In this document: positions 1-7,936 of the stretch, piece by piece
Layout: the number at the start of each line of letters is the position of its first letter
How positions within the stretch are numbered: position 1 is the stretch's first letter
Source of the DNA: a virus
Lineage: Duplodnaviria; Heunggongvirae; Uroviricota; Caudoviricetes
Length of the DNA: 7,936 nucleotides
Virus record (IMG/VR): IMGVR_UViG_2654587792_000005
Coordinates: 1-7,936 of that record
Reading direction: 5' to 3' (one strand)
Made by a program: the position numbers and the translations under genes
The notes under the pieces: generated by a model
The model's input: only the letters and a program-made list of their open reading frames with translations
What the model was told of the DNA's origin: nothing
The model's database searches: none

Positions 1-411
1 GCTATCCTCCAGCAGGGAGTGATGGCTAACGGCGATTTCTTTGATGAACGCCACGGCCTGGACTGGTTACAGAATTATGTGCAGACCAACCTCTATAACC
101 TGCTTTATACCAGCACCACGAAAGTTCCCCAGACTGAAGCCGGTATTACCCGACTGTTATCAAATGTTGAAAAATCACTGGATCAGGCCGTTCAGAATGG
201 ACTGATTGCTCCGGGCGTATGGAACGGGGGCGACCTTGGTCAGTTGTCATCAGGTGACACACTGCCCAAAGGTTATTACGTATACGCCCAGCCGCTGGAT
301 GAACAGGCACAATCAGAACGTGAAGCCCGTAAGGCTCCGGTGATTCAGGCTGCAATAAAACTTGCAGGCGCGGTTCATTACGCTGACGTACAGATTAACG
401 TTGTTCGCTAA
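1..411 (+). CDS. Contractile tail sheath protein, C-terminal part (5-prime end lies upstream of the window)
   Basis: The frame is open from nt 1 ([15 protein letters not shown]...), so the GTG at 19 and ATG at 22 are probably internal codons. Stop TAA 409-411. It lies immediately upstream of the tube, chaperone-with-frameshift and tape measure genes, the canonical sheath position. The call rests on synteny, not on a recognised catalytic motif. Confidence 0.55.
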
Positions 412-421
412 GGGGAAGTGA

Positions 422-862
422 ATGTCTACCTATTCTTTTATGGATGTCACTGCGACGCTGACCGGCCCGACCGGTTCGATTGACCTCGGGTACGGTTCTG
501 CAAGTTCTGAAGAGGGGATTGTGGTTGCGATGGGCGGTCCTAAAAACACCATGACCATCGGTGCTGATGGTGAAGTGATGCACAGCCTCCATGCAGATAA
601 AAGCGGGACGATTACCGTTAACCTTCTGAAGACATCACCGACAAATAAAAAATTGTCGCTGGCGTATAACGCACAGAGCCAGTCTTCTGCCACATGGGGG
701 AATAACGTTATCGTGATCCGCAACAAGGTCAGCGGCGACATCATCACGGCACGCAGTGTTGCGTTCCAGAAACAACCGGATAATGCCAACGCTAAAACCG
801 GTAATACGATGCCGTGGGTGTTTGACTGCGGCAAGATTGACCAGGTTCTCGGGGAGTTTTAA
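422..862 (+). CDS. Tail tube protein (146 aa)
   Basis: ATG 422 follows a purine-rich RBS (AGGGGAAG, 411-418) and the sheath stop by 10 nt. Size and position directly upstream of the chaperone gene are typical of a myovirus tube protein. Stop TAA 860-862. Confidence 0.6.
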   Translation: MSTYSFMDVTATLTGPTGSIDLGYGSASSEEGIVVAMGGPKNTMTIGADGEVMHSLHADKSGTITVNLLKTSPTNKKLSLAYNAQSQSSATWGNNVIVIRNKVSGDIITARSVAFQKQPDNANAKTGNTMPWVFDCGKIDQVLGEF

Positions 863-865
863 TAC

Positions 866-1321
866 ATGGAATTCGAAATCAAAGGCGTGAAATATCGCGT
901 GGCAAAACTCAGCGTTTTTGACCAGCTGAAAGTGACCCGCAAACTTCTGCCGGTGGTACTGGCGGGAATGATGTCAGATTTCGGGAGCATTCGCTCCCGT
1001 TTGCCTGCTGACGGCAAAATCGACACCGTGAAATTCGAGCAGTTAAAACCGGTGTTTGAAACCATGCTCCCGCGTATCGCTGAGGAACTGTCTTCCCTGA
1101 CCGAAGATGACACCGATGCGATTATTCATCCCTGTCTTGCGGTGGTATCGCGGCGTCATATGGACGGATGGGTGCCGGTATTTACCCAGGGCGAACTGAT
1201 GTTTGATGATATTGACCTGCTGGTCATGCTGCAGCTGGTGGCGCGGGTGGTCGCCGATTCGCTGGGAAATTTTTTGCCTACACCCCTTACCAGCACGACG
1301 CAGAGCCTGCAACAGGGCTGA
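866..1321 (+). CDS. Tail assembly chaperone, short in-frame product (151 aa; gpG / P2 gpE analogue)
   Basis: ATG 866 has GGGGAG (851-856) 9 nt upstream. It is a small protein directly upstream of the tape measure gene and carries a slippery site near its 3-prime end. Stop TGA 1319-1321. Confidence 0.7.
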   Translation: MEFEIKGVKYRVAKLSVFDQLKVTRKLLPVVLAGMMSDFGSIRSRLPADGKIDTVKFEQLKPVFETMLPRIAEELSSLTEDDTDAIIHPCLAVVSRRHMDGWVPVFTQGELMFDDIDLLVMLQLVARVVADSLGNFLPTPLTSTTQSLQQG

Positions 1322-1518
1322 CGTTTAACAGCCTGCCGGACGGGCTGTCCTACCTTCTCAATCCGGTTGACGCCGGGTTAATTCCTTATACAGCACTTAA
1401 AGATGGCTCTGTCGATTTGTACGACATTGCTCTCTTGAATGACCATCTGGCGGTAAAAGCGGATAACCAGCGGCGCATTGAGAAATGGAGAGAGGATAAT
1501 GAACGCCGAGACTATTAA
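866..1518 (+). CDS. Tail assembly chaperone, -1 frameshift fusion product (about 217 aa; gpGT / P2 gpE+E-prime analogue)
   Basis: After the slippery run at 1264-1276 the -1 frame has no stop for 82 codons (FFAYTPYQHDAEPATGLTFNSLPDGLSYLLNPVDAGLIPYTALKDGSVDLYDIALLNDHLAVKADNQRRIEKWREDNERRDY), ending at TAA 1516-1518, 17 nt past the tape measure ATG. I translated this by hand; the extension has no start codon, so the ORF track cannot show it. Confidence 0.6.
1264..1276 (+). other. Programmed -1 ribosomal frameshift slippery site (GGGAAAT overlapping TTTTTTG)
   Basis: Sequence GGGAAATTTTTTG. In the chaperone frame the codons are GGA AAT TTT TTG, so both G_GGA_AAT (1264-1270) and T_TTT_TTG (1270-1276) fit the X_XXY_YYZ heptamer rule. 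Phage lambda G/GT uses the closely related G_GGA_AAG. Confidence 0.55.
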
Positions 1519-3487
1519 AGATTTCCTCGTCTCGCTTGGCTTCAGTGTGGATGATGCAGGAGCGAAAAAATTCGGTTCTGTCCTCGCCGGTACAACTGCA
1601 AATGTCATCAAAATGGGGCTGGCCGTCGAAGGAGCGGCGCTGTCCGTGGTGGCCTTCACGGCTAAGATCGCCTCCGGCCTGGATAATCTTTACTGGGCGT
1701 CACAGCGCACCGGCGCGACAGTCCAGGGAATTCAGTCTATTGGCTATGCGGTTTCGCAGGTTGGCGGCAGCGTGGACGCTGCGCGATCTTCTCTGGAAAA
1801 CCTCTCCCGGTTTATTCGTAATAATCCCGGGGCGGAGGGATTTCTGAATCGTCTGGGGGTACAGACACGGGATGCCAGCGGTAACATGCGTGACATGGCC
1901 GCTATTTTTACAGGGGTAGGCCAGAAGCTCAGCGACATGCCGTATTACCGTGCTAACCAGTATGCGCAGATGCTGGGCATTGACGAAAATACCCTGTTGG
2001 CTATGCGTCGCGGTGTGGGTGGCTTCTCCGGGCAGTACAGCGCAATGGCGAAAGCTATCGGCTTCAATGCTGACGAGGCGGCCAGAAGCTCCAACAAATT
2101 TATGACCTCCCTGCGTGAGTTTGGCGCGATGGCAGGCATGGCCCGTGACAAAATCGGCTCTAATCTTGCGGGTGGGCTTGCGGGTTCGCTGGACACACTG
2201 CGCCGCCATATCCTGGACAACTTCCCGCGTATCGAGCAGACCCTGACGAAAGCCATAAAAGGCATTCTGGCGCTCGGGGATATTATCGGGCGGCTGTTCT
2301 TCAGACTGATTGAGGGGACATCAGGCCTCATCACCTGGTGGCAATCGCTGGATAAGCAAACGCGGGAGTTGATCTCGCTGTTTGGCGCACTGACGATTGC
2401 GCTGCGCATTCTGAACAGTACGTTCTGGATGTCGCCGATTGGCCTCATTACCGCGCTGGCGGCGGGGATTGCCCTCCTGTGGGAGGACTATCAGACCTGG
2501 AAGGAAGGCGGCGACAGCCTGATTGACTGGGGCAAGTGGAAACCGGAGGTTGATGCCGCGCTGAAGATGGTTCGTGACCTTAAAACGACCGTTAACGACC
2601 TGGTGAAAGCGCTGGCGAAACTGCTCAATATTGACCCCAAATCATGGTCCCTGAAGTGGGATTTCAGCAACTTCATCGACCAGATGGGCGAATTCAGCAA
2701 AATGCTGAACATGATCGCCGACCTGCTCAACGCTATCAAAGATGGCCGCTGGGCTGATGCCGTCAGCATCGGCAAACAGATACTTAATCAGGGCAGCGAA
2801 AATCCGTCAGCGATGCCGATGGTTACAGACAGCGCTAACAGTACTGCCGACTGGATTAAAGAGCACTGGGGATTTGATCCCCGCAGTGTGGGCCGGACGG
2901 TACGCGGCTGGTTTGGTGATGATGAGCCGGAACAACATGCACAGGCTACGAAACGAGGAGAACGGAATAACAATCCGGGAAACCTTAATTTTGCTGGTCA
3001 GGCAGGGGCTTCTCTTGAACGCCCGGGCGGGCGATTTGCCAGATTTGAAACTGCCTTTGATGGATTACGGGCTCTTGCTCGTCAGTTAATGCTGTACGCC
3101 GGACGGGGAATAAACAGTGTGGAGAAAATTATCTCTACCTGGGCACCTGCGTCTGATAATAACAACACAACCGCGTATATCAGGGCTGTATCGCAACGAC
3201 TGGGAGTGGATCCCCGGGCTGCCCTGAATATGAGCGATCCGCAAACCATGTCAGCATTGATGAGCAGCATTATCCAGCATGAGAATGGAAGAAATATCTA
3301 TTCTCGGGAGCTGATTAATAAGGCTGCCGTGGCGGGAATTAGTGGCAAAGTGACAGAGGTTAACCAGCAAAATACCTACCACATTTACGGTGGCGGAGAT
3401 CCGCACGCTGTCGGTAATGAGGTTGCACGTCGGCAACAGTCTGCAAATGCTCAGGTCATGCGAAGTAATCAGGTGAGGGTGGGTTAG
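1499..3487 (+). CDS. Tail tape measure protein (663 aa from ATG 1499; the ORF track begins at in-frame TTG 1478)
   Basis: Longest gene in the window, immediately after the chaperone/frameshift gene. ATG 1499 is preceded by GGAGAGAGG (1487-1495). The N-terminal half is Ala/Gly-rich. There is a long hydrophobic segment (LISLFGALTIALRILNSTFWMSPIGLITALAAGIALLW) and a distinct C-terminal module (NNNPGNLNF...IIQHENG). Stop TAG 3485-3487. Confidence 0.8.
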   Translation: MNAETIKDFLVSLGFSVDDAGAKKFGSVLAGTTANVIKMGLAVEGAALSVVAFTAKIASGLDNLYWASQRTGATVQGIQSIGYAVSQVGGSVDAARSSLENLSRFIRNNPGAEGFLNRLGVQTRDASGNMRDMAAIFTGVGQKLSDMPYYRANQYAQMLGIDENTLLAMRRGVGGFSGQYSAMAKAIGFNADEAARSSNKFMTSLREFGAMAGMARDKIGSNLAGGLAGSLDTLRRHILDNFPRIEQTLTKAIKGILALGDIIGRLFFRLIEGTSGLITWWQSLDKQTRELISLFGALTIALRILNSTFWMSPIGLITALAAGIALLWEDYQTWKEGGDSLIDWGKWKPEVDAALKMVRDLKTTVNDLVKALAKLLNIDPKSWSLKWDFSNFIDQMGEFSKMLNMIADLLNAIKDGRWADAVSIGKQILNQGSENPSAMPMVTDSANSTADWIKEHWGFDPRSVGRTVRGWFGDDEPEQHAQATKRGERNNNPGNLNFAGQAGASLERPGGRFARFETAFDGLRALARQLMLYAGRGINSVEKIISTWAPASDNNNTTAYIRAVSQRLGVDPRAALNMSDPQTMSALMSSIIQHENGRNIYSRELINKAAVAGISGKVTEVNQQNTYHIYGGGDPHAVGNEVARRQQSANAQVMRSNQVRVG

Positions 3488-4074
3488 TGGATATTCTCTC
3501 TACACTTTTTCATCAGCAGAGCAGAAAAATAGGAATGATTGTTCCCAGTGTTGTTATTTCAGAGAAGCATACAGATATGCTTGAAATAACAGAGCATCCG
3601 GTAGAGGTTGGGGCCGCTGTCGCTGATCATGCCTATAAAAAACCGTCAGAAGTGGTGATGGAGGTTGGTTTCGCCGGTGGCGGCGCATTGCTGGATTTTG
3701 CCAGTAATCTGACGGCTACCAGCCTGCTCGGCCTGAGTCCTCAGCAGACGTATCAGGAGCTACTGGATCTGCAGGAAAGCCGTATCCCCTTCGATGTGGT
3801 AACCGGTAAACGACTGTACAGCAACATGTTGATCCGGGCGCTGGAAGTGACGACGGACAAGACAACCGAAAACGTCCTGTCCGCCGTCCTCACCCTGAGG
3901 GAGGTCCTTATCTCCCGGACACAGCAGATTACCGTCGCGGATAAAACCAACATGAAGGAAGGGGCCAGCACGTCGGCGGTACAGAATAGCGGCAACAAAA
4001 CCACAAAGCCTCCAGATACTTCACTGCTGAAAAGCATCACGGGTAACGTGGCGTCATTACTGGGGGGCGGCTAA
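3487..4074 (+). CDS. Tail or baseplate-proximal protein of unknown function (195 aa)
   Basis: GTG start overlaps the tape measure stop (TAGTG, 3485-3489), indicating translational coupling. GC is like the rest of the tail module. No motif I can name. Confidence 0.5.
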   Translation: MDILSTLFHQQSRKIGMIVPSVVISEKHTDMLEITEHPVEVGAAVADHAYKKPSEVVMEVGFAGGGALLDFASNLTATSLLGLSPQQTYQELLDLQESRIPFDVVTGKRLYSNMLIRALEVTTDKTTENVLSAVLTLREVLISRTQQITVADKTNMKEGASTSAVQNSGNKTTKPPDTSLLKSITGNVASLLGGG

Positions 4075-4376
4075 TGACAATTCAGGAAATTCCGCTGACA
4101 GCGGACAACCAGCAGTTCAGCATCGTCCTAGGTGGTGTCACCTGGCGGATTAGCATCATATGGCGCGATCTGTACTGGATTATGGACCTGCAGAACGACA
4201 GAGGGGAGCCGGTAATCTCCGGTATTCCTCTCGTCACTGGTGCCGACCTGCTGGCGCAGTACGCCTGTATGGGACTTGGTTTTAAGCTGTTGGTGGTCTG
4301 CGATGACAACACACAGGATTATCCCACGAAAACTGACCTGGGCGGGCGCAGTCATTTACTGGTATCAACGGAGTAA
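4074..4376 (+). CDS. Small tail/baseplate protein of unknown function (100 aa)
   Basis: ATG overlaps the preceding stop (TAATG, 4072-4076) with a G-rich stretch upstream. It sits between the tape measure-proximal gene and the hub-like gene. Function is not recognisable from sequence. Confidence 0.45.
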   Translation: MTIQEIPLTADNQQFSIVLGGVTWRISIIWRDLYWIMDLQNDRGEPVISGIPLVTGADLLAQYACMGLGFKLLVVCDDNTQDYPTKTDLGGRSHLLVSTE

Positions 4377-4378
4377 GC

Positions 4379-5443
4379 ATGACACAGAACTGGATGAGAC
4401 ATTTCGAGCTGCAGCTTGTGGACGGGAACGGTCAGGGAATTGAGCTAAGTGATTTTAAAGTCACCTTTACGATCGACTGGTTCAACATCAGCAGCGCGTC
4501 CCGGGTAGGGACTATCAAAATTTATAACCTCTCGGCAGATACTGTGAACCGAATTACCGGGCAGGAGTTTTCGAAAGTGCGTCTGATTGCGGGTTACGAC
4601 GGTATCGCGCCGGAGGTGTCGGCAAGCGATGTCGGGACCGTGCGGGAGGTTGATGCGGCGGACGTGGGCCAGAGTGATGGCCGCAACTACGGACTGATTT
4701 TCAGCGGTGAAATTCGCTACTCGGTCACAGGAAAAGACAGCCCGGTTGATTCCTACGTCCTGATTCAGGCAGCAGATACTGATCTGGCTTTTGCCACCAG
4801 TATAACCTCACAGACGCTGGCTGCCGGTTACACGGTCGCTGATGTAAACCGTGCGCTGATGAAAGACTTCGAAGCCAAAGGCGCGACCGAAGGCCTGACG
4901 CCTGAAATGCCTGCTACTGTATTCCCCCGGGGGCGGGTACTCTTTGGCATGACGCGGCATCTAATGGATAACGTAGCCGGACAATGTGGCGCAACATGGC
5001 AATTCGTGGACGGTCAGCGCCAGATGGTGGCGAATAACGAATATGTTCACGAAGCGATTGTGCTCAACAGCGCTACCGGGCTTATTGGAATGCCGCAGCA
5101 GACTATCGGTAACGGCGTAAACGTCCGCGCGCTTATTAATCCGAACATCCGGGTTAACGGGCTCATTCAGCTGGATCAGGCTTCCGTCTATCGTACCGCG
5201 TTGTCGAACAACGATATTGCGATGGCTGGTGGTCAGATCACCGACCAGAACACGGACGGAAATATTACGCTAAGCGGCACCACATCGCAGCCTGCCAGCA
5301 TCGCAACGGATGGCGTTTATATTGTTCGCGGGATTATGTACACTGGCGACACAAGGGGCCAGGCGTGGTACATGGATATGATGTGCGAAGCGCGTGGGGC
5401 TAGCGATATACCTAGCCAGTTGGCAATGCAACGGGGAGCGTAA
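4379..5443 (+). CDS. Baseplate hub-like protein (354 aa; assigned by size and synteny)
   Basis: ATG 4379 lies 2 nt after the previous stop, with ACGGAG upstream. A roughly 350-aa protein between the tape measure and spike genes is where gp27/gpD-type hub proteins sit in contractile tails. I did not recognise a specific motif. Stop TAA 5441-5443. Confidence 0.45.
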   Translation: MTQNWMRHFELQLVDGNGQGIELSDFKVTFTIDWFNISSASRVGTIKIYNLSADTVNRITGQEFSKVRLIAGYDGIAPEVSASDVGTVREVDAADVGQSDGRNYGLIFSGEIRYSVTGKDSPVDSYVLIQAADTDLAFATSITSQTLAAGYTVADVNRALMKDFEAKGATEGLTPEMPATVFPRGRVLFGMTRHLMDNVAGQCGATWQFVDGQRQMVANNEYVHEAIVLNSATGLIGMPQQTIGNGVNVRALINPNIRVNGLIQLDQASVYRTALSNNDIAMAGGQITDQNTDGNITLSGTTSQPASIATDGVYIVRGIMYTGDTRGQAWYMDMMCEARGASDIPSQLAMQRGA

Positions 5444-5445
5444 GC

Positions 5446-5907
5446 GTGAAAAAACAGGTGATAGTTGCAATAACGATGCTGATTTCTACGACTTCTTTTG
5501 CCGAACCAGGTAAGTTTGAATTTAAAGCAGCCGACCTGATGGAGCAGCAAAAGTTTACGGAATGGCAACATTACGCATCTGTGAAGCCTTTTTTCTCAAT
5601 GAATGGGCGACGTTTTACAATGACCTTAGATGATTTCGCTGACATCATCAGGAACACATTCCAGCAATGTAATGATTTGGACGCATACACCAACCGCAAA
5701 GGAACCCGGGATTCTTGTCAGGAATATATTTACAACGGTATGAAAGAGTGGATAAAACTGTCAAAGGATCCTAGTGTTAGTCCGCAAGCATGGAAAATTG
5801 GTGCTAGATATGCTTTCAACACAAATAATCCTGTCCCCGGTAGTAATGTGATTGATTTTAATGGTTGGGCTGGTGGTATTCGTGTTGCAAAATCAAAAGG
5901 GTTCTAA
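5446..5907 (+). CDS. Secreted or periplasmic protein of unknown function with N-terminal signal peptide (153 aa); accessory (moron) gene
   Basis: GTG 5446 has GGGGAG (5433-5438) 7 nt upstream and lies 2 nt after the hub stop. The N-terminus MKKQVIVAITMLISTTSFA-EP has two lysines, a hydrophobic core and a probable SFA cleavage site. The mature part has two Cys (QQCNDLD, DSCQEY). Hand-counted GC is about 38% at 5461-5520, versus about 58% at 2401-2460 in the tape measure gene. Confidence 0.6.
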   Translation: MKKQVIVAITMLISTTSFAEPGKFEFKAADLMEQQKFTEWQHYASVKPFFSMNGRRFTMTLDDFADIIRNTFQQCNDLDAYTNRKGTRDSCQEYIYNGMKEWIKLSKDPSVSPQAWKIGARYAFNTNNPVPGSNVIDFNGWAGGIRVAKSKGF

Positions 5908-6022
5908 TGGCACTAGAGTAGAAAATCCTCGATTTTTCAGGGAAATGGGCTCGTAGTAAAATCTAGAGATTCATTTTCTAAGGGGGATTTTGTGCGAAAC
6001 TACTAAGTAGACCAGATGTGGA

Positions 6023-6052
6023 TTGACTAAACTGTATACGCGAACATAAAAT
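6023..6052 (+). promoter_or_regulatory. Candidate sigma70-type promoter for the two-gene operon
   Basis: TTGACT (6023-6028), an 18-nt spacer, then TAAAAT (6047-6052), in the AT-rich 173-bp intergenic region about 30 nt upstream of GTG 6081. Sequence match only. Confidence 0.4.
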
Positions 6053-6080
6053 CTGACAAAAAATAAGTAGTGAGTGAACT

Positions 6081-6851
6081 GTGGCGAGACCAAAACTAAA
6101 AGCCGAAGAGCGTTTTGACCAGTTGATTAATGTAATCAACAGTGGGGAGCCACTTGATATGTGGACTTTCCGAGAAGTGGTTTCGGAGTATGGTTCTAAT
6201 CATACTCCTATGGCTGAAGCACTTGTAGCGTTGGCTTATATAGCTAAGGGTGAGGTGCTCTTTGGGATTGAGTCGCTTGAGGTCATCCTTCCACATGCTG
6301 ACGTTAATTTCGCACGGATCTTTTGTAAACTTCTCGAGCGATTTTCTCTACTCGAAAAACTGGATTACTACATATATTCTTTAGCTGATAAGTTTCCTAC
6401 AAAGTGGTTTACTTACAAAGCTGGCGGCGTTGCGTACTTGGTAGGGAAACTATCGAAATGCGTGGAGTATTTAGGGCGTCATTGCAAAATGTTATCCGAA
6501 GAAGAGCATAGGGATGACGCAGAAACCTTCTTGCAGGAGGTAATTAACGATATGGATGAAGCTTATAAAAATTCAGGGTGCTCTTCAGAGCAATATAGGC
6601 AAGTTGCCTTGGCTGTGCACAGAGTTATGGCTGAATTCCCGTCAACTGAATATCGCGCGGACATTAACGGGGCGTCTGGTGGAACGTATTTGGTTGAGGT
6701 GGTTAAGGCGTCTCCAGAGCGGGTTGTTGCAATGAATATGCGACTTGCTGATGAAATCTGCTCGATCGATTTGCTTGATGATTGTAACCTGATAGCAAGA
6801 TTTTCCGTTGAAAGAAATGGATTAAAAGAGTGTAAATATGCCTATAACTAG
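6081..6851 (+). CDS. Hypothetical protein, first gene of accessory two-gene operon (256 aa from GTG 6081, or 230 aa from ATG 6159); putative HEPN-like partner or effector
   Basis: Low-GC ORF (about 42% by hand count at 6081-6140). GTG 6081 has a weak RBS, whereas the in-frame ATG at 6159 has GGGGAG (6144-6149) 9 nt upstream, so the true start is uncertain. The C-terminal half contains YRQVALAVH (R173-x6-H180, nt 6597-6620), preceded by the acidic helix DAETFLQEVINDMDEAYKN. The stop TAG 6849-6851 overlaps the next gene by 14 nt. Confidence 0.55.
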   Translation: MARPKLKAEERFDQLINVINSGEPLDMWTFREVVSEYGSNHTPMAEALVALAYIAKGEVLFGIESLEVILPHADVNFARIFCKLLERFSLLEKLDYYIYSLADKFPTKWFTYKAGGVAYLVGKLSKCVEYLGRHCKMLSEEEHRDDAETFLQEVINDMDEAYKNSGCSSEQYRQVALAVHRVMAEFPSTEYRADINGASGGTYLVEVVKASPERVVAMNMRLADEICSIDLLDDCNLIARFSVERNGLKECKYAYN

Positions 6852-7233
6852 TTCTGAGTTTTTGTCTTCGGCCGAACGTTGTTTTGCTGAAGATTGTGAG
6901 ATTGGTTATCGTAATGCTATTTCACGAGCATATTACGCTCTCTACCATGAAATTAAAGATAATCTAACTAGTCTTCCTGCTTATACTCGGGATCATCATG
7001 CCAGCCTTATCTCTTATCTTAAAAATAAGGGAGAAAATAAACTGGAACCCTATGATCCTCGAAGTCTAAAATCTATGGCTTACAAACTTGAGCAACAGAG
7101 GTTAGCTCGGAATGAGGCTGATTATGATTTAAGTAGTTGTGGCATAAATAAAGCAATGGCACAACAATCAATCTTGGAAGTAAAAACAATTTTTTCTCAA
7201 TGGGAACAAATGAAGACTGATGTAGCCGTTTAG
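6838..7233 (+). CDS. Small HEPN-like protein, second gene of accessory two-gene operon (131 aa)
   Basis: ATG 6838 with AAGAG 8 nt upstream, overlapping the upstream gene. The helix SAERCFAEDCEIGYRNAISRAYYALYHEIKD carries R30-x6-H37 (nt 6925-6948). A second His pair follows (DHHASLISYL), then a C-terminal helix QQRLARNEADYD. From memory this resembles canonical HEPN-domain proteins; the domain call is unverified. Stop TAG 7231-7233. Confidence 0.5.
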   Translation: MPITSSEFLSSAERCFAEDCEIGYRNAISRAYYALYHEIKDNLTSLPAYTRDHHASLISYLKNKGENKLEPYDPRSLKSMAYKLEQQRLARNEADYDLSSCGINKAMAQQSILEVKTIFSQWEQMKTDVAV

Positions 7234-7252
7234 GTCTAACTGATTTATTAAT

Positions 7253-7280
7253 AAAAACCCGCCACTTGGCGGGTTTTTTG
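7253..7280 (+). terminator. Rho-independent terminator (A-tract, GC stem-loop, T-tract; potentially bidirectional)
   Basis: AAAAA-CCCGCC-ACTT-GGCGGG-TTTTTTG: a perfect 6-bp all-GC stem (7258-7263 with 7268-7273), a 4-nt loop, then six T. It lies 20 nt after the HEPN-like gene stop; the flanking A-tract would allow function on the opposite strand too. Confidence 0.8.
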
Positions 7281-7298
7281 CTTTCTGGAGCCTACTAA

Positions 7299-7936
7299 AT
7301 GGCAGTATCTGACCAGACCCGCAGCGGCGACCTTGCCGAAACATTCAAATCTGAACGGGAAACAACAAAGAACCAGATCCGTGTCGCCTTGCCTGGCATT
7401 ATTCAGTCATTCGATCCTGATGCGGTGACGGCAGTTGTGCAGCCTGCTATCCGTTCGGTTGAAAAGGATAATGACGGCAACCGCATTACCCAAAATTACC
7501 CATTGCTGGTGGATGTGCCAGTGGTATTCCCGCGTGGCGGAGGCTGTACGCTAACGTTTCCAGTTAAAGCCGGTGATGAATGTTTGGTGATTTTTGCCGA
7601 TCGTTGTATTGATTTCTGGTGGCAGAGTGGCGGGATACAGGAGCCGGTCGATGACAGAATGCATGATTTATCGGATGCGTTTTGTATTGTCGGTCCCCAG
7701 TCGCAGGCAAGGAAGATTAGCGGTATTAATACCAGTGCCACACAGTTGCGTAGTGATGACGGCAGCACCTATTTTGAGCTTAATCCTGATACCAGGAAAA
7801 TTAAAATTGTCGCTCCGGGGGGCCTTGATGTGGTTGCCCCTCTGGCTGATTTTTCTGAGAAAGTAACCATTCATGGCCTGTTAACCTGGATGGGAGGCAT
7901 GGTGGGGTCTGTTGTTTCTGGTGTGGCTTCAAAAAT
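7299..7936 (+). CDS. Baseplate central spike-like protein (gpV / gp138-like), N-terminal part; 3-prime end beyond window
   Basis: ATG 7299 has GGAG (7287-7290) 8 nt upstream. The frame has no stop over 212 codons to the window end (hand translation: MAVSDQTRSGDLAETFKSERETTKNQIRVALPGIIQSFDPDAVTAVVQPAI...LVDVPVVFPRGGGCTLTFPVKAGDECLVIFADRCIDFWWQSGG...). The ORF track omits it because it has no stop. GC returns to the tail-module level. The spike call rests on position after the hub gene and on a remembered N-terminal pattern, so it is tentative. Confidence 0.5.
   Translation, partial: MAVSDQTRSGDLAETFKSERETTKNQIRVALPGIIQSFDPDAVTAVVQPAIRSVEKDNDGNRITQNYPLLVDVPVVFPRGGGCTLTFPVKAGDECLVIFADRCIDFWWQSGGIQEPVDDRMHDLSDAFCIVGPQSQARKISGINTSATQLRSDDGSTYFELNPDTRKIKIVAPGGLDVVAPLADFSEKVTIHGLLTWMGGMVGSVVSGVASK

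Follow-up and report, generated by a model that had tools for sequence, protein, structure and literature searches.

The 7,936-nucleotide stretch of DNA analyzed here (IMG/VR record IMGVR_UViG_2654587792_000005, positions 1 to 7,936; the window) is a piece of an Escherichia coli prophage, and it carries a gene for a HEPN protein of 131 amino acids (aa) preceded by a gene for a TPR-like partner of 256 aa. The two genes are an obligate, co-diverging pair, and the pair is a swappable two-gene cassette, an accessory cargo (“moron”) that temperate phages carry in their late or structural operons. We give slightly better than even chances to the reading that the pair acts as a toxin-antitoxin-like or abortive-infection module: the HEPN protein would cleave RNA, and its partner would hold it back or serve as a sensor. 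Window positions 5400-7300 are 100% identical to APEC-O117H42 and PEC209, and RefSeq labels the HEPN protein and both of its upstream neighbors “hypothetical protein.” The two genes of the cassette are:

6081-6851, + strand: partner gene, 256 aa; putative regulator, antitoxin, or sensor
6838-7233, + strand: HEPN gene, 131 aa, ATG to TAG, from the open reading frame (ORF) call; AF0298-type HEPN-T group, putative RNase effector

A preliminary description of the window had given the second ORF and its protein sequence exactly as found here. It missed the obligate upstream partner and the mobile-cassette context.

HEPN domain and putative active site

Searches with the single 131-aa sequence gave a sub-threshold match with PF05168 in Pfam (E 0.0023, 18.5 bits, cut-off 22) that extends over the full length (protein residues 6-119 against profile positions 9-111 of 117), a match with HEPN_IX in PADLOC (E 0.003), and no match in PDB. 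The protein matches phrog_5176 (4e-36), a family of unknown function. When grouped at 90% identity, the close homologs collapse to just 12 clusters, which come from E. coli, Klebsiella, and Yersinia. With 1.8 billion representatives searched exhaustively by profile, 1671 relatives were obtained at E <= 1e-3, and the best 150 of these (24-48% identity to the 131-aa protein) make up alignment A3. These relatives are 87-155 aa long, mostly 115-145 aa; 53 of the 150 match PF05168 (best 4.3e-9), and 39 match HEPN_IX (best 9e-7). Compared with PDB, the A3 profile matches 9xbd_A (2e-13), 9xbc_A (1.6e-12), and AF0298/2hsb (2.9e-8), all of them solved HEPN proteins, and 2hsb is the top-ranked Foldseek hit for the structural model. 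The PF05168 matches among relatives, the PDB hits of the profile, and the Foldseek result confirm that the protein is a HEPN domain. The minimal HEPN domain that the preliminary description had proposed is thus borne out by profile search. Identity to AF0298/UPF0332-type HEPN-T proteins (PF05168; 2hsb, 9xbd) is only about 20%, and the protein is a new, divergent member of the group.

The AlphaFold2 model (mean predicted local distance difference test, pLDDT, 83; predicted template modeling score, pTM, 0.79) is all-alpha, as had been judged by eye, with helices at residues 5-17, 21-41, 53-66, 74-96, and 105-130. It shows the HEPN fold, an up-down core of four helices in which an insert separates helices 2 and 3. 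What had been described as one N-terminal helix is two in the model (5-17 and 21-41). Compared with the 84%-identical allele of enteropathogenic E. coli (EPEC) E2348/69, the HEPN gene has a ratio of nonsynonymous to synonymous divergence (dN/dS) of 0.05 at a dS of about 1.0; therefore, it is a real gene under purifying selection. Klebsiella phage ST405-OXA48phi1.3 (MK416008) has a HEPN homolog at 3553-3896 of its locus (L191; 46% identity over residues 1-126) that is annotated as two short coding sequences (3553-3684 and 3681-3896), which reflects either a frameshifted copy or mis-annotation.

The canonical Rx4-6H motif is located at the end of HEPN core helix 3 (Anantharaman et al. 2013, PMC3710099). 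In AF0298-type HEPN-T proteins and AbiV, the motif Arg is retained and the His is lost, often with Asp instead, and a second conserved His in the helix 2-3 insert could make an alternative active site (PMC3710099). Core helix 3 of the 131-aa protein (residues 74-96) ends in R91-N-E-A-D95-Y96, so that the Rx4-6H motif is absent and Tyr takes the place of His at R+5 (R91-x4-Y96). The insert helix (residues 53-66) starts with H53-H54. Hidden Markov model (HMM) alignments place H54 on the His of 2hsb (THRG) and 9xbd (SHSA), and R91-x3-D-Y on 2hsb REESDY and 9xbd RNRSDY. The protein therefore has the AF0298-type pattern, with R91 kept, D95 present, the motif His lost, and H54 in the insert. Judged from the alignments, H54 is the compensating, near-invariant His of this variant; H53 is invariant only within the close clade.

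At least 90% conservation in A3 is found at E21, R25, R30, Y32, Y33, H37, H54, L84, R91, D95, and Y96, eleven positions that are mostly polar in an alignment of 24-48% identity. The preliminary description had put R30-x6-H37 forward as the HEPN motif. Both residues are indeed among the conserved ones, but they lie on core helix 2, and R30-x6-H37 is ruled out as the catalytic motif. The region is a conserved family signature (SRAYYAxYH), in which R30 is replaced by Thr in 2hsb and H37 by Tyr in 9xbd. The suggestion in the same description that H53/H54 and RLARNEADYD resemble conserved HEPN positions fared better, since H54 corresponds to the alternative His and R91-NEAD-Y96 to the motif position. 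PDB entry 9xbc is a Tyr-to-Phe mutant of 9xbd in RNRSD[Y/F]DL, at the residue equivalent to Y96. This suggests that someone is probing that tyrosine; a literature search for the codes 9xbd and 9xbc found no relevant paper.

The type IX retron HEPN protein of Kva2 also lacks Rx4-6H, and its site is composed of H64 in the third helix and R122 in the fourth helix, at the dimer interface (bioRxiv 10.64898/2026.07.14.738597). Substitutions H64A and R122A each abolish both toxicity and defense, and the site residues come from two protomers (bioRxiv 10.64898/2026.07.14.738597). The Kva2 protein cleaves rRNA and tRNA (bioRxiv 10.64898/2026.07.14.738597). H54 and R91 would be the counterparts of this third-helix His and fourth-helix Arg, and the weak but recurrent similarity to HEPN_IX makes the 131-aa HEPN family a distant sequence relative of the Kva2-type retron IX effector. 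The similarity of the 131-aa protein itself is too weak (E 0.003) to place it in the HEPN_IX family.

With the His of Rx4-6H missing and R91-x4-Y96 in its place, the domain could instead be non-catalytic, an adaptor that binds RNA, nucleotides, or proteins and has a regulatory or virion-assembly-related role in the late program. Inactive HEPN versions exist (Anantharaman et al., PMC3710099), and the module recurs in tail and structural clusters of myo-, sipho-, and podo-like phages. However, the likely inactive versions are those without conserved polar residues altogether (Anantharaman et al., PMC3710099), whereas about ten polar or aromatic residues are near-invariant in the present family, among them an H + R pair that is catalytic in the related retron IX HEPN. 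The gene pair is also found in bacterial genomes with no recognizable tail genes nearby. We regard a non-catalytic domain as unlikely.

The TPR-like partner and obligate pairing

The start codon of the HEPN gene overlaps the 3' end of the partner gene by 14 nt. The partner protein consists of about 180 residues of TPR-like helical repeats, then a beta-beta-alpha-alpha-beta domain of roughly 60 residues, and a YAY tail; its model (pLDDT 88) has ten helices preceding the beta-beta-alpha-alpha-beta unit. The 256-aa protein has no match in Pfam, NCBIfam, or PADLOC, and it belongs to phrog_17809, which is annotated “unknown function.” Nine to ten divergent partner sequences compared with Pfam and PADLOC gave only sub-threshold noise from TPR, Sel1, and HAT repeats, and a word-indexed search with a partner profile returned nothing beyond “hypothetical protein.” Only N219, L222, F241, and A114 are more than 80% conserved family-wide; therefore, the partner does not look like an enzyme. 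In particular, Pfam, NCBIfam, and PADLOC gave no nucleotidyltransferase match, and conserved acidic motif residues are lacking. A dN/dS of 0.08 places the gene under purifying selection.

Although the partner is a very divergent protein, its extreme N-terminus (M-x-x-P-x-x-K-x-x-E) shows unusual conservation throughout the wider family; a conserved N-terminal segment reads PKLKAEE. At the other end, Y-A-Y (residues 253-255) is invariant in the close clade of about ten clusters, and the model gives the C-terminal tail as disordered (pLDDT below 50). The N-terminal (1-10) and C-terminal (253-255) segments might be contact or degron elements.

A locus scan of IMG/VR with a 13-sequence alignment as the query yielded 80 loci with HEPN relatives of 90-28% identity. 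A partner homolog lies immediately upstream, overlapping or abutting, in 76 of the 79 usable viral loci, and this holds down to 28% HEPN identity. In an unbiased sample drawn by the neighboring baseplate hub protein (see below), both genes are present in 31 of 31 cassette loci, and no locus has a single gene. Pairwise identities of HEPN and partner proteins are correlated with r = 0.96 (52 unique pairs), and the partner diverges faster (mean identity 25% vs. 37%). The same partner-HEPN order is found in GTDB genomes of Yersinia, Xenorhabdus, Proteus, Methylococcales, Thiotrichaceae, Pseudomonadales, Massilia, Cupriavidus, Gallionella, and others. The pair is present in prophages of E. coli (including EPEC E2348/69), Salmonella, Klebsiella, and Yersinia, and in many other proteobacterial genomes. 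With overlapping genes that are inherited as a unit on mobile DNA, it has the general form of a type II-like toxin-antitoxin or abortive-infection module.

A cargo slot between hub and spike genes

The prophage neighborhood in RefSeq is a myovirus-type tail module with a tape-measure-like gene and genes for baseplate, plug, hub, spike, and baseplate J proteins. The content of the hub-spike slot was determined in an unbiased sample of 80 IMG/VR prophage contigs drawn by hub protein (96-99% identity), 75 of which have both hub and spike. In these 75 contigs the slot is 690-1740 nt long and never empty; it contains partner and HEPN genes in 31 and other cargo in 44. Since 44 of these 75 otherwise near-identical prophages lack the cassette, it is dispensable for virion assembly, and a structural role in the tail is ruled out. 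Prophages with 97-99% identical hub and spike carry HEPN alleles that are about 89%, 45%, or 30% identical to the 131-aa protein, and dS is 0.8-1.0 in the cassette, five times that of the hub/spike flanks (0.17-0.18). These allele differences and the higher dS of the cassette indicate cassette exchange and not co-divergence with the phage. GC content is 36-46% in the pair and the 153-aa ORF upstream of it, and 51-58% in the flanks.

Other phages carry the pair at other structural positions. In Pseudomonas phage PG1, it lies between the tape measure and DNA-circularization genes and is annotated “HEPN domain-containing protein.” Siphovirus-like contigs have it between the major tail protein gene and the chaperone and tape measure genes, and in other phage contigs it follows the tape measure gene or lies between internal virion protein and terminase genes.

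Around the pair, the window has the following features:

4379-5443, + strand: baseplate hub gene, left flank (weak PF22759 baseplate hub gp41 match); context, not part of the module
5446-5907, + strand: 153-aa ORF with a clear N-terminal signal peptide (MKKQVIVAITMLISTTSFA), starting 3 nt after the hub stop
6023-6052, + strand: sigma-70-type promoter-like site (TTGACT-18 nt-TAAAAT), about 30 nt upstream of the partner gene
7253-7278, + strand: intrinsic-terminator-like hairpin (11-bp GC-rich stem, then a T run), 20 nt past the HEPN stop
7299-7936, + strand: 5' part of the membrane-puncturing spike gene, right flank (RefSeq annotation, ORF read-through); context, not part of the module

The hairpin and spike start are kept in every cassette allele. 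Positions 7245-7300, with the hairpin just before the spike gene, are conserved in 179 E. coli genomes with or without the HEPN cassette, and E. coli prophages without the cassette match here solely at 7245-7300. Because they are also kept without the cassette, the hairpin and spike start mark the right border of the slot. The terminator-like hairpin stands in the middle of the tail operon, ahead of downstream baseplate genes. The promoter-like site is the best consensus match in 5300-7400 (10 of 12 positions), and its sequence is identical in the 84%-identical E2348/69 and L006 alleles. Over the whole promoter scan, the number of sites was no higher than in shuffled sequence.

Inside late structural operons the pair would be co-transcribed late in infection, and its function could be to benefit the phage in lytic growth, for example by host RNA takeover or counter-defense, and not to protect the lysogen. 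Hypervariable phage slots hold counter-defense as well as defense genes. Three points speak against such a function. The promoter-like site and the terminator-like hairpin next to the pair suggest expression independent of the late operon, the pair is also present on bacterial contigs without recognized phage tail genes, and the HEPN + partner modules characterized so far are host- or prophage-protective. We consider a lytic role very unlikely.

The 153-aa signal-peptide ORF has no match in Pfam, NCBIfam, PADLOC, or PHROG, and NCBIfam matched none of the three cargo proteins. At its position, most sister prophages have an unrelated signal-peptide or lipoprotein-like gene of 87-118 aa (64 loci) or a 241-aa lipoprotein gene, and a few have a 158-180-aa homolog. 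The differing first genes after the hub indicate that this position is itself a variable secreted-protein slot. Farther upstream, the 669-aa protein in tape-measure position (1478-3487, + strand) carries the label “lytic transglycosylase” in one RefSeq genome; other genomes have it as “hypothetical protein.”

In sister prophages, the same slot as that of the pair contains alternative cargo:

L132 7577-8573: 192-aa gene, then a gene for a 138-aa YafO-family toxin (PF13957, 4e-17)
L180 7396-7908, + strand, in one sister prophage: 170-aa protein with the canonical-type R-x4-H string YIRNNLFHGG
L130 7460-7699: DUF4282 membrane protein, 79 aa
L149 7916-8488: DUF2335 membrane protein, 190 aa
L113 7422-7976: membrane protein of 176-184 aa (weak PycTM match)
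L168 7470-8473: unassigned pair of 207 aa and 125 aa

The 170-aa protein, unmatched in Pfam and PADLOC, may represent another kind of HEPN-like cargo.

The YafO-toxin pair in the same slot of sister prophages speaks for a simpler explanation, a plain addiction module that stabilizes the cassette or prophage by post-segregational killing and has no anti-phage function. The small operon is also similar to type II toxin-antitoxin operons, with the upstream gene overlapping the downstream putative RNase gene, and no defense genes are neighbors of the pair. On the other hand, a 256-aa TPR-like partner without a recognizable DNA-binding domain is unlike autoregulating antitoxins, and the extreme allele diversification and exchange between near-identical prophages is more like an arms race. 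Plain addiction appears somewhat unlikely.

Relation to known systems and proposed function

HEPN-T proteins are standalone, or they are linked or fused to minimal nucleotidyltransferases (PMC3710099), whereas the protein described here has a TPR-like partner and is found in phage late operons. In the HepT/MntA (type VII) system, HepT is of the DUF86 type, has a canonical Rx4H motif, and is neutralized by AMPylation from a nucleotidyltransferase antitoxin. Identity with HEPN-MNT systems is ruled out; the partner is not a nucleotidyltransferase but has a TPR-like fold with a small alpha/beta domain, and the motif His is absent from the HEPN protein.

In the type IX retron, partner components hold the HEPN protein inactive, and abortive infection results from rRNA and tRNA cleavage (bioRxiv 10.64898/2026.07.14.738597). 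That system comprises a reverse transcriptase, an msr/msd noncoding RNA, and a winged-helix protein, whereas the putative regulator here is a single TPR-like protein. No reverse transcriptase or winged-helix gene was found in the window or the annotated prophage, and the window has no Rfam match. With no reverse transcriptase or noncoding RNA and HEPN_IX similarity at only E 0.003, identity with the type IX retron is ruled out.

HEPN effectors that are carried on prophages or plasmids and protect the lysogen include AbiV, HepS (Gifsy-1), and Tha (S. aureus phages). Of these, AbiV has the same alternative conserved His as the 131-aa protein (PMC3710099). Phage tail proteins are the triggers of HepS and Tha, for which self/non-self discrimination has been described. 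AbiV and HepS are described as single proteins, HepS with a canonical Rx4-6H, in contrast to the two-gene pair without the motif His. PADLOC matches were limited to HEPN_IX and PDC-M05B, and AbiV and the other defense models were unmatched. The proteins of the DefensePredictor DS-28 HEPN system differ from this pair, and the four RefSeq accessions of the pair are absent from those portions of the paper's supplement text that were searched.

Links between HEPN domains and TPR or Sel1 proteins have been described elsewhere, in HEPN families such as AbiU2 and LA2681 (PMC3710099). The HEPN-TPR theme is therefore not new; the partner family and its pairing with this HEPN family appear uncharacterized. 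Literature searches found no paper that describes the present pair and no relevant one on HEPN + UPF0332.

The toxin-antitoxin or abortive-infection reading is based on the enzyme-like HEPN protein, its overlap with a fast-evolving, non-enzymatic repeat protein, mobility of the two genes as a unit, and a hotspot shared with an RNase toxin pair. In this mechanism, the 131-aa protein would be catalytically active as a homodimeric, metal-independent RNase. Its non-canonical site would comprise H54 and R91 (plus D95 and Y96), possibly from different protomers. The TPR-like partner would bind the HEPN protein and keep it inactive, as an antitoxin and/or a sensor of infection. The RNase would be set free when the partner is lost or is sequestered, for instance by a protein that an infecting phage brings. 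Cellular or phage RNA would be cleaved by the freed RNase and growth would cease, with abortive-infection or toxin-antitoxin-type behavior. The preliminary description had guessed at a metal-independent RNase or its cognate regulator, and this guess holds up, with RNase activity as the predicted function.

The RNase activity, toxicity, physical interaction, identity of the toxin, trigger, and defense phenotype are inferred, and several points weigh against this mechanism. The HEPN protein lacks the canonical catalytic His, HEPN-T domains include some non-catalytic binders, and the 131-aa protein alone fails the Pfam gathering threshold for PF05168 (18.5 vs. 22 bits). That H54 and R91 cluster in a cleft is predicted by homology to 2hsb and Kva2. 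No DNA-binding domain is recognizable in the partner, which is bigger than would be expected of a classical type II antitoxin, and the putative promoter is a consensus match only. PADLOC 2.0 has no model that matches the pair, and no known defense genes are adjacent to it.

The pair may instead be an undescribed, widespread anti-phage system with the hypervariable partner as a direct receptor for a tail or virion protein of competing phages, a proposal we hold to be improbable. Binding of a competitor's structural protein to the TPR-like partner would free the His/Arg HEPN RNase. Placement in structural operons and allele swapping between otherwise identical prophages would then allow each prophage to retain an allele that is blind to its own virion proteins, providing self/non-self discrimination.

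If the toxin-antitoxin or abortive-infection reading is true, the pair would be a compact candidate immune or toxin-antitoxin module that the family and defense libraries tested do not recognize as a system. It would exemplify a new, non-enzymatic control of a minimal HEPN toxin, with a TPR-like partner replacing the nucleotidyltransferase, and it would offer a tractable genetic model for the long-predicted, little-tested “alternative histidine” site of AF0298-/AbiV-type HEPN proteins. The hub-spike slot is a cargo hotspot in a common family of enterobacterial myovirus prophages, and it could be mined for more accessory genes.

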